From Bacteroidales bacterium (GTDB taxonomy: Bacteria > Bacteroidota > Bacteroidia > Bacteroidales > UBA10428): a stretch of DNA of 64,000 bases. Positions 3,834-62,235 of the stretch are shown in pieces. How positions within the stretch are numbered: the first letter of the stretch is position 1; every line of letters starts with the position of its first letter. A program made the position numbers and the translations under genes. The DNA lies in assembly GCA_035258345.1 (NCBI GenBank), contig DATEVU010000119.1, positions 46,487 to 110,486 of the forward strand, read 5' to 3'. The notes below the pieces were generated by a model. It had not been told where the DNA came from. It was given only the letters and a program-made list of their open reading frames with translations, and made no database searches.

Positions 3834-3884
3834 TTTTTTTTTCAAAGAACAATTGGATTCGGTTCCTGTTTAATTCCAGGTTCT

Positions 3885-11236: not shown

Positions 11237-12982
11237 ATGAGTAACTTTTTAGTATCTGCCAGAAAATACCGGCCTGTTAATTTTGATACCGTAGTGGGGC
11301 AACCCGCTGTGACCAATACCCTGAAGAGTGCCATCAGATCAGGTCATGTGGCACACGCGTATCTTTTCTGCGGTCCACGGGGCGTAGGCAAAACAACCTG
11401 CGCGAGGATATTTGCCAAAATATTGAATTGCACGGCACTGTCGGATAATATTGAAGCCTGCGAAAAGTGTGAATCCTGCAAATCCTTTAGCGAATCACGC
11501 TCATTCAATATTCATGAGCTGGATGCCGCCTCAAATAACTCGGTGGATGACATCAGGAGCCTGATCGATAAGGTCAGGATACTTCCCCAGATAGGAAAAT
11601 ACAGCATCTATATTATTGATGAGGTACATATGCTTTCTCAGGCGGCTTTTAACGCATTTCTCAAAACCCTTGAGGAACCGCCTGCTCATGCCATTTTTAT
11701 TCTCGCTACTACCGAAAAGCATAAGATATTGCCCACCATCCTGTCGCGGTGTCAGATTTTTGACTTCCACAGGATCAGGGTTGAGGATATTGTTGGGTAT
11801 TTGCAGCATGTAGCCCGCAAGGAAGATATCCGGTATGAGGAAGAGGCCCTGAATGTCATAGCACTTAAAGCCGATGGTGCCATGCGTGATGCACTTTCGA
11901 TCTTTGACCAGGTTGCCAGTTTCTCAAACGCGAATATTACTTACAGGGAGGTTTTGGACAATCTGAATTTTCTTGATTATGAGTACTATTTTAAATTAAC
12001 GGAAGTGTTTTTGAACGGCGAAACCGGCAAAGCACTGCTCATTTTTGATGAAATACTGCAACGGGGATTTGACGGACAAAATTTTACAGGAGGGTTATCC
12101 TCACATTTCCGTGATTTGTTGGTTTGTCACGATCCCTCCACGCTGCAGCTTCTTGAAGTAAGTGATGTATTGAAAACCCGTTACATGAAGCAGGCTGCCT
12201 TATGCACTGCCGAATTCCTGTTTAATGTGCTCGAAATATGCAACCAGTGTGAAATAACCTATAAATCAGCCAGGAATCAGCGATTGCACGTAGAACTTGC
12301 ACTTGTCAGGTTATGCGGTATCACCGGTGAAAAAAAAAACCTGATTCGTGTACACACTAAGCTTGCCGTACCCGAAATTATAAAAAAGGGAGTAGCCATA
12401 AAGGAGGAGCAGCCGCTACCTGTGAATGATTCACACGAGGCGGAGAAACCTGTTCCTGTCAGGGAACCCGAACCTTCGTATGAGCCCCCGCCGCGGATAT
12501 CCATTAAAGATGCCTTGCATGCTGCCGAAAATTTAAAACCGGCATGTGAAAAGATTCCTGTCACGGATAATGTAAGTACGGATAAGCCACTACCAGGCCC
12601 GGTTTCCACAAAGCCGGTCTCACAGGAATTTTTATTGATGTGCTGGAACTCATTTGCAGGTCAGATCCGCGAAGAAAAGCCACGTATGGCGGTTACCCTC
12701 AAAAATGTCAAACCGCTTGTTTCAGAGGAGCATATAATTGTTATTGAACTTAAAAACAGGTCTCAGCTTGAGGATTTTAACATGTCCGTCAAACCTGAAC
12801 TTGAAAAATTTCTCAGGCGTGAAATGCAGCATAATCTGATCACCGTTGAAGCCCGCCTGATCGAATCTGTTGAAGCCCCTCACACCAAATTGTATACCAG
12901 TGAGGAGAAATTCAGGTATCTTAGCCAGAAGAATCCCCTTCTCACGAATTTAAAGCAGGAACTCAACCTTGAGCTTGAATAA
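11237..12982 (+). CDS. dnaX: DNA polymerase III subunit gamma/tau
   Basis: Walker A GPRGVGKTT, Zn module CEKCESC, DEVHML, and SRC motif LSRCQIF. A Pro/Glu-rich linker and a tau-like C-terminal region follow. Confidence 0.95.
   Translation: MSNFLVSARKYRPVNFDTVVGQPAVTNTLKSAIRSGHVAHAYLFCGPRGVGKTTCARIFAKILNCTALSDNIEACEKCESCKSFSESRSFNIHELDAASNNSVDDIRSLIDKVRILPQIGKYSIYIIDEVHMLSQAAFNAFLKTLEEPPAHAIFILATTEKHKILPTILSRCQIFDFHRIRVEDIVGYLQHVARKEDIRYEEEALNVIALKADGAMRDALSIFDQVASFSNANITYREVLDNLNFLDYEYYFKLTEVFLNGETGKALLIFDEILQRGFDGQNFTGGLSSHFRDLLVCHDPSTLQLLEVSDVLKTRYMKQAALCTAEFLFNVLEICNQCEITYKSARNQRLHVELALVRLCGITGEKKNLIRVHTKLAVPEIIKKGVAIKEEQPLPVNDSHEAEKPVPVREPEPSYEPPPRISIKDALHAAENLKPACEKIPVTDNVSTDKPLPGPVSTKPVSQEFLLMCWNSFAGQIREEKPRMAVTLKNVKPLVSEEHIIVIELKNRSQLEDFNMSVKPELEKFLRREMQHNLITVEARLIESVEAPHTKLYTSEEKFRYLSQKNPLLTNLKQELNLELE
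12330..12360 (+). other. dnaX: Candidate recoding (slippage) site in dnaX: an A10 run followed by stops in the +1 and -1 frames
   Basis: The sequence GAA AAA AAA AAC gives 10 consecutive A at 12330-12339. There is a +1-frame TGA at 12342-12344 and a -1-frame TAA at 12358-12360. Confidence 0.45.
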
Positions 12983-12999: not shown

Positions 13000-14226
13000 A
13001 TGAAAGGACAAAGAATAACCCTGAGCAACAATAAGCTGATCGTACCCGATAATCCCGTTATCCCGTTTATCGAAGGCGATGGAACAGGTCCGGATATATG
13101 GGCCGCTTCGGTAAAGGTTTTCAATGCTGCCGTAGAGAAAGCATATCATGGAAACAGACAGATCATATGGCAGGAGGTGTATGCCGGAGAAAAGTCCTAC
13201 AATAAAACAGGGAACTGGTTACCCGACGAAACCCTGCAGTCCATCCGTGATTGTATTGTGAGTATAAAAGGTCCCCTTACCACGCCTGTGGGCGGAGGGA
13301 TCCGTTCACTCAATGTGGCGTTACGGCAGATTCTGGATCTGTACGTTTGCCTCCGGCCGGTTAAATACTTCGAAGGGGTACCCTCACCGGTAAAAGATCC
13401 TTCCACTACCAACATGGTTATATTCAGGGAAAATGCCGAGGATATCTATGCCGGAATTGAATGGATGGCGGAAACTCCACAGGTGAAACAGGTAATAACA
13501 TTTCTGATGGAGGAAATGAAGGTAGAGAAGATAAGGTTTCCCGAATCATCCTCTATCGGCATCAAACCGGTTTCAAAAGCCGGTACCGAAAGACTTGTGA
13601 GAGCAGCTATCCGTTATGCGGTACAACATGATCTGCCTTCCGTAACACTTGTTCATAAAGGCAATATCATGAAATTCACCGAAGGTGCTTTTCGTGACTG
13701 GGGATACCAGCTCGCCAAAAATGAATTCGGTGCCTCAGAGATTGACGGCGGACCCTGGTGTTCGTTCATGAATTCAACTTCCGGCAAAAGGATCATCATC
13801 AAGGATGTAATTGCAGATGCATTTTTACAGCAAATACTTACCCGTCCGGCCGAATACTCGGTGATTGCCACACTCAACCTCAACGGCGACTACATATCTG
13901 ATGCCCTTGCAGCTATTGTAGGCGGAATAGGAATTGCCCCGGGTGCAAATATCAATTATGAAACAGGACATGCGGTTTTTGAGGCCACCCATGGCACGGC
14001 TCCCAAATACGCCGGAAAAGACATGGTGAACCCGGGTTCGGTTATACTCTCCGGAGTGATGATGCTTGAATATATGGGATGGAATGAGGCCGCAGAATTG
14101 ATAACTGGGGGCCTGAAGGCCTCAATAAAAGCAAAAAAGGTAACCTATGATTTTGAAAGACTGATGGAAGGAGCGACAAAACTATCCTGTTCGGCATTTG
14201 GCGACGAGATTATCCGAAACATGTGA
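13000..14226 (+). CDS. icd: NADP-dependent isocitrate dehydrogenase
   Basis: 408 aa. Matches homodimeric prokaryotic IDH blocks ([47 protein letters not shown]). Confidence 0.93.
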
Positions 14227-46042: not shown

Positions 46043-47953
46043 TCACTTCTTTAAGCCCTCCCTTACCCTGCTTATGTTAAGGTCGTTGAAAATATTCTTT
46101 CCGGAAGGGGTATACATGTAATCAATGCTTTCCTGGAATTGCTCCGTTATTTTTGGTCTTACGATCTTCAGGGTGCTGTTGAGCAGGTGATTTTCCTCGG
46201 TGAATCCTTCGCCAATCAGCGCAAATGCAGCCGGTAACCAGCGATGCGGAAACATGCTTTCAAATTTTCCGCCGGCCAGGAACTGGTTGATCTGGGATTC
46301 AACCAGCTGGATCACCCCGCGCTGGGTAGCTTCATCCCCAACTGACATATTGGAAGCGGCAAGCCAGGTTTTTATGGTGGCATAGTTCGGGAAGATCAGT
46401 GCCGTGGTATAGGCATTCTGATTGTTATACAACATGCACTGATCGATGAATTTCGAATGCTGGACAATGGCTTCCTCGATGCTTTCGGGACTGTATTTTT
46501 CACCGTCATCGGCAATCAGCAAACTCTTGAACCTGCCAAGAACATAAAGAAAGCCGTCATTATCCACGTAGCCAAGATCACCGGTGTAGAGCCATCCGTC
46601 ACGAATGGTATCCTTCGTGGCTTCGGGATTTGCCCAATAGCCCTTCATCACGTTCTCTCCCTTTATTACAATCTCGCCTTTTTCACCGGTGGGAAGTTCA
46701 TTCCCGTCATCATCGCAGATCTTCAGTTCGAGGTCCTTTACCAGTGCTCCCGAGGAGCCCATTTTGTGCATGGTGGGATTATTGGCTGAAATAACAGGTG
46801 CTGCTTCCGTTAAACCATACCCCTGATACATGGGAATGCCTATGGCATAAAAGAAGCGCTGCAAATCAATGTCAAGCAGCGCACCACCTCCGATAAAGTA
46901 CTCGAGCCTTCCTCCGAATCCCTCCCGCACCTTGGTGAAAAGTATCTTATCAAACAGGATGCAAAACGGCTTGAGGAGTATTCTTATTCCTTTCCCCTTG
47001 TTCCATCCTGTTCCGTTATAGATGTAGGTTGTTTTCAGGGCTAACCCGAACAGATTTTCCGCAAAACGGCCTTTATCCCGGATACCTTTTTCAATATTTT
47101 TTTTAAAATTTTTAGCCAGCGCCGGTACGCTCATCAGCAGGTATGGCCTGTTCTCCTTAATATTTACCGGGATATTTTTCAGGGTTTCCATGGGAGTCTC
47201 ACCCACCTGGATGGATGCCATGCTTGCCCCGCACGCCATAAGAGTATAAATACCACAGGTATGGGTAAATGCATGATCCCACGGCAAAATCAGCAGCGTT
47301 GTCCAGTAACGCGGAATAGAAAATAAACTGAGGGATTGTTGAATATTGGCTATATAGTTGCCATGACTAAGGATGATCCCTTTGGGATCCGCTGTTGTTC
47401 CGGAGGTATAACAGATATTGGCATAATCATCAGCGCTAACTGATATCCAGCGACGGCTGAATTCTTCATTGCTGTTTTTGAGAAAATCCTTCCCCCGGTT
47501 GATGATCTCTGCGAAAAGAACTTCGTAGGATTGACACTCTTCCTGGGGATCCATTAAAATAATCTTTTCCAGGGTATCAATGGATTTTTTCAGTACTGAA
47601 ACTTTTTTTGCCTGGTTCTTTGATACGATAATAAACCGCGCACCGGAATGCCCGATTCTGAATTTAAGCTCTGCGGGTTCGGTAAGCTTCACCGACAGTG
47701 GTACATCAACTGCACCGGCATAAAAAATACCCAGTTCTGCAATTACCCAGTCGTTTCTTCCTTCCGACAACAACGCGATACGGTCACCTTTTTGAACACC
47801 CATGGAAACAAGACCTGCACCGAACAACTGTACTTTTTCATGTACTTCCCTGAACGTGGATCCCTTGTAACTATTGTTCTTTTTTTCAAGTAGAAATACA
47901 TTGTCGCTGTATCTTTTTACACAGTCCTCGAACAAATGGATCAACGTTTTCAT
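46043..47953 (-). CDS. AMP-dependent synthetase/ligase (long-chain fatty-acid--CoA ligase-like)
   Basis: AMP-binding motifs YTSGTTADPKG, GYGLTE and GDLGYVDNDGFLYVLGR. The ATG at 47953 (MKTLIHLF) is preferred because the track start at 48019 lies inside the terminator hairpin. Confidence 0.88.
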   Translation of the reverse strand: MKTLIHLFEDCVKRYSDNVFLLEKKNNSYKGSTFREVHEKVQLFGAGLVSMGVQKGDRIALLSEGRNDWVIAELGIFYAGAVDVPLSVKLTEPAELKFRIGHSGARFIIVSKNQAKKVSVLKKSIDTLEKIILMDPQEECQSYEVLFAEIINRGKDFLKNSNEEFSRRWISVSADDYANICYTSGTTADPKGIILSHGNYIANIQQSLSLFSIPRYWTTLLILPWDHAFTHTCGIYTLMACGASMASIQVGETPMETLKNIPVNIKENRPYLLMSVPALAKNFKKNIEKGIRDKGRFAENLFGLALKTTYIYNGTGWNKGKGIRILLKPFCILFDKILFTKVREGFGGRLEYFIGGGALLDIDLQRFFYAIGIPMYQGYGLTEAAPVISANNPTMHKMGSSGALVKDLELKICDDDGNELPTGEKGEIVIKGENVMKGYWANPEATKDTIRDGWLYTGDLGYVDNDGFLYVLGRFKSLLIADDGEKYSPESIEEAIVQHSKFIDQCMLYNNQNAYTTALIFPNYATIKTWLAASNMSVGDEATQRGVIQLVESQINQFLAGGKFESMFPHRWLPAAFALIGEGFTEENHLLNSTLKIVRPKITEQFQESIDYMYTPSGKNIFNDLNISRVREGLKK

Positions 47954-62098: not shown

Positions 62099-62235
62099 GG
62101 GCAACCAACGAAAAATAAAAGAATACTACTCTAAAATCACCAATAAATACCAATAATTCCATGGCGAATGGTGCTAAAGGATAACTGAAGAAGAAGATTT
62201 TTTTTTAAGGGTTGAGGTGCCCTGTATACTGCTTT

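Follow-up and report, generated by a model that had tools for sequence, protein, structure and literature searches.

The dnaX gene of a Bacteroidales bacterium (assembly GCA_035258345.1, contig DATEVU010000119.1) carries a run of ten adenines (A10) shortly after the sequence that encodes the clamp-loader core, and comparison with other Bacteroidota indicates, with a probability of roughly 0.7, that the tract serves for programmed transcriptional slippage, as in dnaX of Thermus thermophilus. The stretch analysed here, referred to throughout as the window, comprises 64,000 nucleotides (nt), positions 46,487 to 110,486 of the contig read on the forward strand. A preliminary description of this DNA had proposed the run as a candidate site for recoding between the tau and gamma forms of DnaX, and had named both transcriptional slippage and ribosomal frameshifting of the Escherichia coli type as precedents. 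Recoding at the A10 of the window dnaX is now supported on comparative grounds, by conservation of the run, by conservation of stop codons close behind it in the alternative frames, and by relatives in which the tau C-terminal domain lies out of frame downstream of the same run; of the two mechanisms named, slippage is clearly favoured and ribosomal frameshifting disfavoured.

The dnaX gene and its A10 run

The product of the open reading frame (ORF) at 11237-12982 is unambiguously DnaX, the tau/gamma subunit of the clamp loader. It scores 767 bits against NCBIfam PRK14971 (cut-off 685) and 432.6 bits against TIGR02397, dnaX_nterm (cut-off 250), the latter spanning residues 6-360 and 355 of the 355 profile positions; the Pfam families DNA_pol3_delta2 and DNAX_ATPase_lid are also matched, and DNA_pol3_gamma3 (gamma domain III) weakly. 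Residues 4-359 are collinear with residues 3-356 of the E. coli gamma/tau structures (1JR3, 3GLH; E = 2e-65), and in this alignment HVELALVRL of the window protein is paired with GVEMTLLRA (E. coli residues 348-356), which forms the final helix of domain III in the gamma complex structure. An identical protein from a metagenome-assembled genome (MAG) has the accession HJZ40797.1 and the name 'DNA polymerase III subunit gamma/tau [Bacteroidales bacterium]', with a single product annotated. The features of the gene are listed below.

11237-12982, + strand: dnaX coding sequence (CDS), from the ORF list and its translation; the zero frame encodes tau, 581 amino acids (aa), with its stop at 12980-12982
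11237-12328, + strand: clamp-loader core, domains I-III, codons 1-364, from TIGR02397 and the alignment to the E. coli structure; common to tau and the predicted gamma forms
12330-12339, + strand: A10 homopolymer, putative slippage site, read from the sequence; flanked by G and C; encodes E365 K366 K367 N368
12342-12344, + strand: TGA in the +1 frame, 1 codon past the run; reached when one A is lost or two are gained
12358-12360, + strand: TAA in the -1 frame, 6 codons past the run; reached when one A is gained or two are lost
12341-12574, + strand: Pro/Glu-rich variable linker, tau-specific, from the translation; unalignable across the phylum
12575-12979, + strand: conserved tau-specific C-terminal domain, the last ~135 aa, from a precomputed Pfam label (PF28557/DUF8439) and a hidden Markov model (HMM)

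From 12329, the first base of codon 365, the zero-frame sequence is GAA AAA AAA AAC CTG ATT, with the A10 starting 5 codons past the end of the conserved domain I-III core. Beyond this point the linker diverges, and many tblastn matches across the phylum end near residue 360-370. The outcome of changes in run length was simulated. Removal of one A gives GAA AAA AAA ACC TGA and a protein of 368 aa ending in ...GEKKT, while addition of one A gives GAA AAA AAA AAA CCT GAT TCG TGT ACA CAC TAA and a protein of 374 aa ending in ...GEKKKPDSCTH; a gain of two yields 369 aa ending in ...GEKK(K)T, and a loss of two 373 aa ending in ...GEKK(K)PDSCTH. Every factual statement in the preliminary description proved correct: direct reading of the sequence confirms the A10 at codons 365-368 and both off-frame stops, the alignment to the E. 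coli structure bears out the position of the run right after the last helix of domain III, and the coverage of residues 6-360 by TIGR02397 agrees with its view that a truncated product would be a minimal gamma-like core.

The run is conserved across Bacteroidota

Two independent sets of Bacteroidota dnaX loci, 80 in each, were compared, one drawn from species-representative genomes and the other from metagenome contigs; 153 loci, the window among them, were informative. The run was sought within about 300 nt after the codon aligned with residue 362. A run of nine to eleven adenines (A9-A11) is present in the linker after domain III in 107 of the 153 loci (70%), and its length is A10 in 88 of these, A11 in 11 and A9 in 8. 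What the run encodes, and where it lies, are far from constant. In the first set, with 62 run-bearing loci, its first A occupies codon position 1 in 7 cases, position 2 in 36 and position 3 in 19, its offset from domain III ranges from -1 to 91 codons, and the peptides it specifies include EKKN, EKKK, LKKK, QKKK, AKKK, KKKT, TKKK, KKKI and others. Lysine is encoded by AAG 36% of the time in these dnaX genes. Since the run is kept while its phase, position and peptide vary, and since AAG is used for lysine elsewhere, selection acts on the nucleotide run and not on a lysine motif.

Runs of this length are otherwise scarce. In the 564 kb of the first-set loci there are just 17 other A or T runs of at least 9, and 115 kb of these dnaX genes contain a single further A run of at least 9, which is the displaced tract of locus L018 itself. 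In L018 an A10 with close -1 stops lies 274 nt past the residue-362 anchor, ~90 codons into the linker, which shows that no fixed place between domain III and the C-terminal domain is required of the cassette.

Closer relatives of the window were also compared. The 120 closest proteins (56-99% identity) all have (E/Q)KK(N/K/T) at the site except for one, which is a residue short; this protein (P0022, Logan ERR12035931, available as protein only) reads EKK-L in place of EKKKL, as an A run shorter by 3 nt would predict. The DNA of four relatives (56-74% identity) has A9-A11 at the homologous site past domain III, and each alternative frame is closed at a distance of 1-9 codons. The preliminary description had asked whether the run and its off-frame stops are kept in dnaX of related Bacteroidota, and these four relatives together with the 107 loci answer that they are. 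Some close relatives also carry a second, shorter A8 run deeper in the linker (L082 at codon 418, L083 at codon 442), likewise near a stop in the -1 frame.

Off-frame stops are conserved with the run

The positions of stops were examined in the 86 run-bearing single-ORF loci, with ordinary dnaX positions as the background. The -1 frame is closed no more than 4 codons past the run in 83 of the 86 loci (median 1, maximum 7), against a background of 0.31; the window, whose -1 stop lies at 6 codons, is near the top of this range. The +1 frame is closed within 7 codons in 79 of the 86 (median 4), the background being 36%. Both frames are closed within 6 codons in 73 loci, 85% compared to 12.5% in the background. 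The off-frame stops, too, are thus under selection.

In some relatives tau lies out of frame behind the run

The location of the tau C-terminal domain was established with an HMM trained on the C-terminal 135 aa of 121 single-ORF homologues. In 21 loci the zero frame ends 0-6 codons past the same run and the tau C-terminal domain is found in another frame. The window differs from these two-ORF genes in that its zero frame stays open for 214 codons, up to the conserved C-terminal domain. The tau domain is in the -1 frame at 17 loci (L019, L024, L028, L049, L052, L063, L075, L076, L097, L099, L109, L125, L127, L131, L133, L151 and L157) and in the +1 frame at four (L027, L033, L067 and L144), where the zero-frame stop comes 1-3 codons past an A10 (at ~4095-4104 in L027 and ~4093-4102 in L033) and where production of tau would need one A to be lost or two gained.

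Several of these sites recur. L024 (Sunxiuqinia) has A10-TAGCTGAC in common with L028 (Prolixibacteraceae), the site of L049 is nearly the same as that of L052, and A10-GTAGC is shared by L067 and L144, which come from different assemblies; the arrangements are therefore inherited and not sequencing noise. Further, the two-ORF loci still have A10, whereas a miscall in a gene with an in-frame A10 would leave A9 or A11. The +1 arrangement of L027 was not confirmed in its nearest metagenomic relatives (72-74% identity, L086-L096), all of which are without the run.

By analogy with E. coli, the tau C-terminus is expected to be indispensable. If so, a frame shift would have to take place at the run, and at a substantial rate, in the 21 loci where tau is out of frame; and if the shift is obligatory there, then the same run in single-ORF genes, that of the window included, would have to yield truncated forms. 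One further locus, L111, has the tau domain in the +1 frame with no A run of at least 9 nearby (only an A7, 245 nt downstream), and may represent a frameshift in the assembly, a pseudogene or recoding at some other site.

Transcriptional slippage is the favoured mechanism

In the proposed mechanism, RNA polymerase would transcribe the T10 template through a short RNA-DNA hybrid made up entirely of A:T pairs, which could realign, so that the mRNA pool would contain runs of 9, 10, 11 and other lengths. Messages with 10 A's (or 7, or 13) would be translated into tau, 581 aa, comprising core, linker and C-terminal domain. Those with one A gained or two lost would enter the genomic -1 frame and end at the TAA at 12358-12360, giving 373-374 aa, and those with one A lost or two gained would end at the TGA at 12342-12344, giving 368-369 aa. 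Both short products would be gamma-like, consisting of domains I-III only, without the partner-binding of the tau C-terminus. We infer that the slippage occurs at the transcription step, and likewise its efficiency and the assembly of the short products into clamp loaders.

Several observations favour slippage. The tau domain is in the -1 frame at some loci and in the +1 frame at others, behind one motif, and shifts in both directions behind the same motif have served as the published mark of transcriptional realignment (PMC3711429). Neither alternative frame is left open. The conserved length of the run is 10, while a ribosomal -1 heptamer needs 7; counter-selection of A/T runs in bacterial coding regions sets in at ~9 nt in many bacteria (PMC1088944). 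Lastly, none of the stimulators of ribosomal frameshifting was found. Downstream RNA structure in the window does not exceed that of shuffled controls (minimum free energy z = +0.45 over 61 nt and +0.40 over 101 nt), and over 62 loci the mean z of the downstream folding is -0.23, with no structure upstream or downstream beyond controls. The sequence upstream of the run, GCGGTATCACCGGTG, contains no GGAGG-like motif and hence no Shine-Dalgarno-like stimulator, and there is no upstream or flanking motif conserved across loci. An Rfam search (cmscan, 12200-12500, E up to 10) gave no dnaX frameshift element and just two chance-level matches to unrelated families. A scan for promoters and terminators at 12100-12600 found nothing on either strand; with no terminator signal, the T10 of the minus strand is therefore not part of a terminator.

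Alternatively, the site could be one of programmed -1 ribosomal frameshifting as in E. coli, in which case a homogeneous mRNA would give a single gamma of 374 aa, ending at the TAA at 12358-12360. The run does contain in-phase heptamers (A_AAA_AAA at 12331-12337 and A_AAA_AAC at 12334-12340), although these are unavoidable in any A10 and both are reported to be much less shift-prone in E. coli than A_AAA_AAG (PMC5009743). Conservation is tighter for the -1 stop, at a median of 1 codon past the run, than for the +1 stop, as this mechanism would have it, but the +1 stop, which a -1 shift does not require, is conserved as well, and at four loci tau is in the +1 frame, out of reach of a -1 shift. 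In two loci without a long run, an in-phase heptamer (A_AAA_AAG in L037, A_AAA_AAA in L039, Pontibacter) lies ~39 nt past the residue-362 anchor in an E. coli-like layout, with a -1 stop one codon on. These suggest that some lineages of Bacteroidota may have come to use ribosomal frameshifting in place of slippage. For the window, in spite of the precedent in E. coli (PMC5009743), the lack of a downstream stem-loop, a Shine-Dalgarno-like element or an Rfam match, and a conserved length of 10 where 7 would do, make ribosomal frameshifting an unlikely explanation of the site, though it is the strongest of the alternatives. Another locus without an A run, L026 (Bacteroidaceae), has an in-phase G7 (G_GGG_GGG) 27 nt past the residue-362 anchor with a -1 stop one codon on; this may be chance or another slippery variant.

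A change of run length could also arise in the DNA, by slipped-strand mispairing, making the run a hypermutable tract with heritable switching between tau and gamma-only alleles, that is, phase variation or population heterogeneity. Homopolymers of 10 are prone to replication slippage (PMC1088944), and the fact that the tau-bearing frame differs among related genomes means that single-A indels or compensating changes have been fixed in evolution. However, a length of exactly 10 in 88 of the 107 loci, whatever the frame architecture, is the opposite of what a length-variable tract would show, and a gamma-only allele would be lethal unless slippage by RNA polymerase or the ribosome supplied tau, if tau is essential as expected from E. 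coli. None of the six proteins expected from slippage or indels (368, 369, 373, 374, 580 and 582 aa) occurs in a collection of 15 billion proteins, a result of low power since only three contigs of the organism are recorded there, all three giving the same 581-aa protein. A pattern scan of metagenome contigs for run-length variants with the exact flanks of the window gave 0 matches. Heritable switching is the least probable of the explanations considered.

Evidence weighed against slippage

Several points count against a transcriptional-slippage site at the A10. The 64 kb of the window contain four A or T runs of at least 9, corresponding to 7 overlapping matches where 4.8 are expected, and 24 of 100 shuffles of the window reach 7. 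Both alternative frames are closed within 6 codons at 12.5% of ordinary Bacteroidota dnaX codon positions. By itself, then, the window's A10 with its nearby stops is not statistically significant, and the significance of the site derives entirely from conservation. About 30% of the sampled Bacteroidota dnaX genes, mostly from gut Bacteroidales, are without the run and evidently manage. The binomial tails for the enrichment of stops, 1e-27 to 1e-52, assume that lineages are independent and so overstate the significance; the effect itself is not in doubt despite this. Three of the four +1 loci are in single low-coverage MAG or metagenome contigs, and independent support for the +1 type comes from the L067/L144 pair only. 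The literature searched contains no transcript or protein evidence for recoding of Bacteroidota dnaX. Finally, ribosomal shifting may contribute, every A10 holding an in-phase A_AAA_AAA.

Some of these points would be accounted for if there were no recoding at all, the run being part of a Lys-rich linker in an AT-leaning genome, the stops being there by chance and any slippage products being noise. Off-frame stops as close as those of the window are unremarkable, A runs of at least 9 are not over-represented in it, and about 30% of Bacteroidota dnaX genes do without one. Against this, the dnaX run is the sole A/T run of at least 9 inside a CDS in the window and such runs are essentially the sole ones in 115 kb of dnaX orthologues; the run persists as nucleotides although its phase, position and peptide change; the off-frame stops are enriched from 12.5% to 85%; and tau is out of frame behind the run in 21 loci. 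The absence of recoding is thus improbable, and is already largely refuted by the comparative data. The three other runs in the window, all of them non-coding, are as follows.

3834-3842, - strand: A/T run of at least 9, just past a stop codon
47991-48001, + strand: T11 run in the 5' leader of a probable acyl-CoA ligase gene, ahead of its likely true start (MKTLIHLFED...)
62198-62206, - strand: A/T run of at least 9, upstream of a gene start

The loci with neither an A run nor an obvious slippery heptamer are L010, L022, L025, L036, L038, L043, L045, L068, L071, L074 and L086-L096. They belong to Bacteroides and other Bacteroidaceae, to some Rikenellaceae and to contigs from the human gut. In these gut Bacteroidales gamma is either absent or produced otherwise.

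Relation to known systems

In T. thermophilus, an A9 with stops in both non-zero frames gives rise by slippage to ~50% gamma (Larsen et al. 2000, via PMC1088944 and PMC5009743). The window gene has the same organisation, with a single-ORF tau, a sense-strand A run after the clamp-loader core and stops nearby in each of the non-zero frames; given such stops, any transcript carrying an indel that is not a multiple of 3 gives gamma, in Thermus as in the window. Even the sequence that follows is similar, A9-GCCTGA in Thermus and A10-CCTGA in the window. The differences are the length of the run (A9 as opposed to A10), the phylum, and the G+C content, which at about 44% is much lower in the genome of the window. 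Slippage has been demonstrated experimentally in Thermus, whereas the window case is known from sequence comparison.

A closer parallel is found within the phylum. A set of 17 'novel' dnaX genes split into two ORFs was reported by Antonov et al. 2013 (PMC3711429), and nine of them have A10; the A10 genes include those of Flavobacterium johnsoniae, F. psychrophilum, Cytophaga hutchinsonii, several Chlorobi and Coraliomargarita, and Capnocytophaga ochracea appears in the alignment with a shorter run. In that work the A10 motifs were aligned to the Thermus site (Figure S3) and transcriptional realignment was inferred, with no dnaX experiment and with -1 cases only at the DNA level; a 2016 review (PMC5009743) repeats the account, and no newer literature on Bacteroidota dnaX was found. 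The window shares with these genes an A10 at the same place in dnaX, the phylum (for several of the species) and the proposed mechanism, and their architecture was recovered here in the 17 loci with tau in the -1 frame. It differs in that its zero frame encodes tau and a shift would lead to gamma, whereas in the two-ORF genes the zero frame encodes gamma and tau needs the shift. The Antonov set is confined to -1 cases, to which the present analysis adds four +1 loci.

Two other routes to a short form are known. E. coli dnaX uses -1 frameshifting at A_AAA_AAG, aided by a Shine-Dalgarno-like element and a stem-loop (PMC5009743). The gene is the same, as is the pairing of tau with a C-terminally truncated gamma through an A-rich slippery sequence followed by an early off-frame stop. 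However, the shift site of E. coli is at codon ~430, well past domain III, while that of the window is at codon 365; the E. coli stimulators are absent from the window, whose run exceeds a heptamer in length and is followed by stops in both alternative frames. In Caulobacter crescentus proteolysis of full-length tau yields a gamma-like short form (PMC5009743); the product is comparable, but it arises post-translationally and involves no slippery sequence.

The window is thus a single-ORF member, with Thermus architecture, of a cassette already recognised in its phylum, and is not new in kind. What is modestly new lies wholly beyond the window: how widespread the cassette is (70% of the Bacteroidota sampled), the locking of its length at A10, the +1 architecture and the absence from gut Bacteroidales. 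Taken together, these could be explained by a phylum-wide, length-locked slippage cassette in which architectures with tau in the 0, -1 and +1 frames interconvert, as slippage supplies all frames usefully, with the +1 type unreported in 2013, a secondary loss in gut Bacteroidales, and the window as an example of the single-ORF state with two gamma isoforms of 368 and 374 aa; the case for and against this wider picture seems evenly balanced.

If transcripts do slip, standard annotation would overlook an essential component of the replisome, gamma would be unrecorded in most Bacteroidota, and two-ORF relatives would be mis-called as truncated genes or pseudogenes. The phylum-wide conservation of ten A's would also offer a natural, selectable reporter of the slippage frequency of Bacteroidota RNA polymerase. 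The coexistence of 0, -1 and +1 architectures would illustrate that, at ~50% recoding, a single-base indel swaps the roles of 'standard' and recoded product. In practice the result calls for no more than an annotation note on the window itself, and no new biology is implied.

Gene order downstream of dnaX

Directly after dnaX, at 13000-14226 on the + strand, lies a gene of the isocitrate/isopropylmalate dehydrogenase family (PF00180, 408 aa). The gap between the two genes is 17 nt in the window and 9-35 nt overall, and the order is kept in all of the close relatives fetched (L081-L085).

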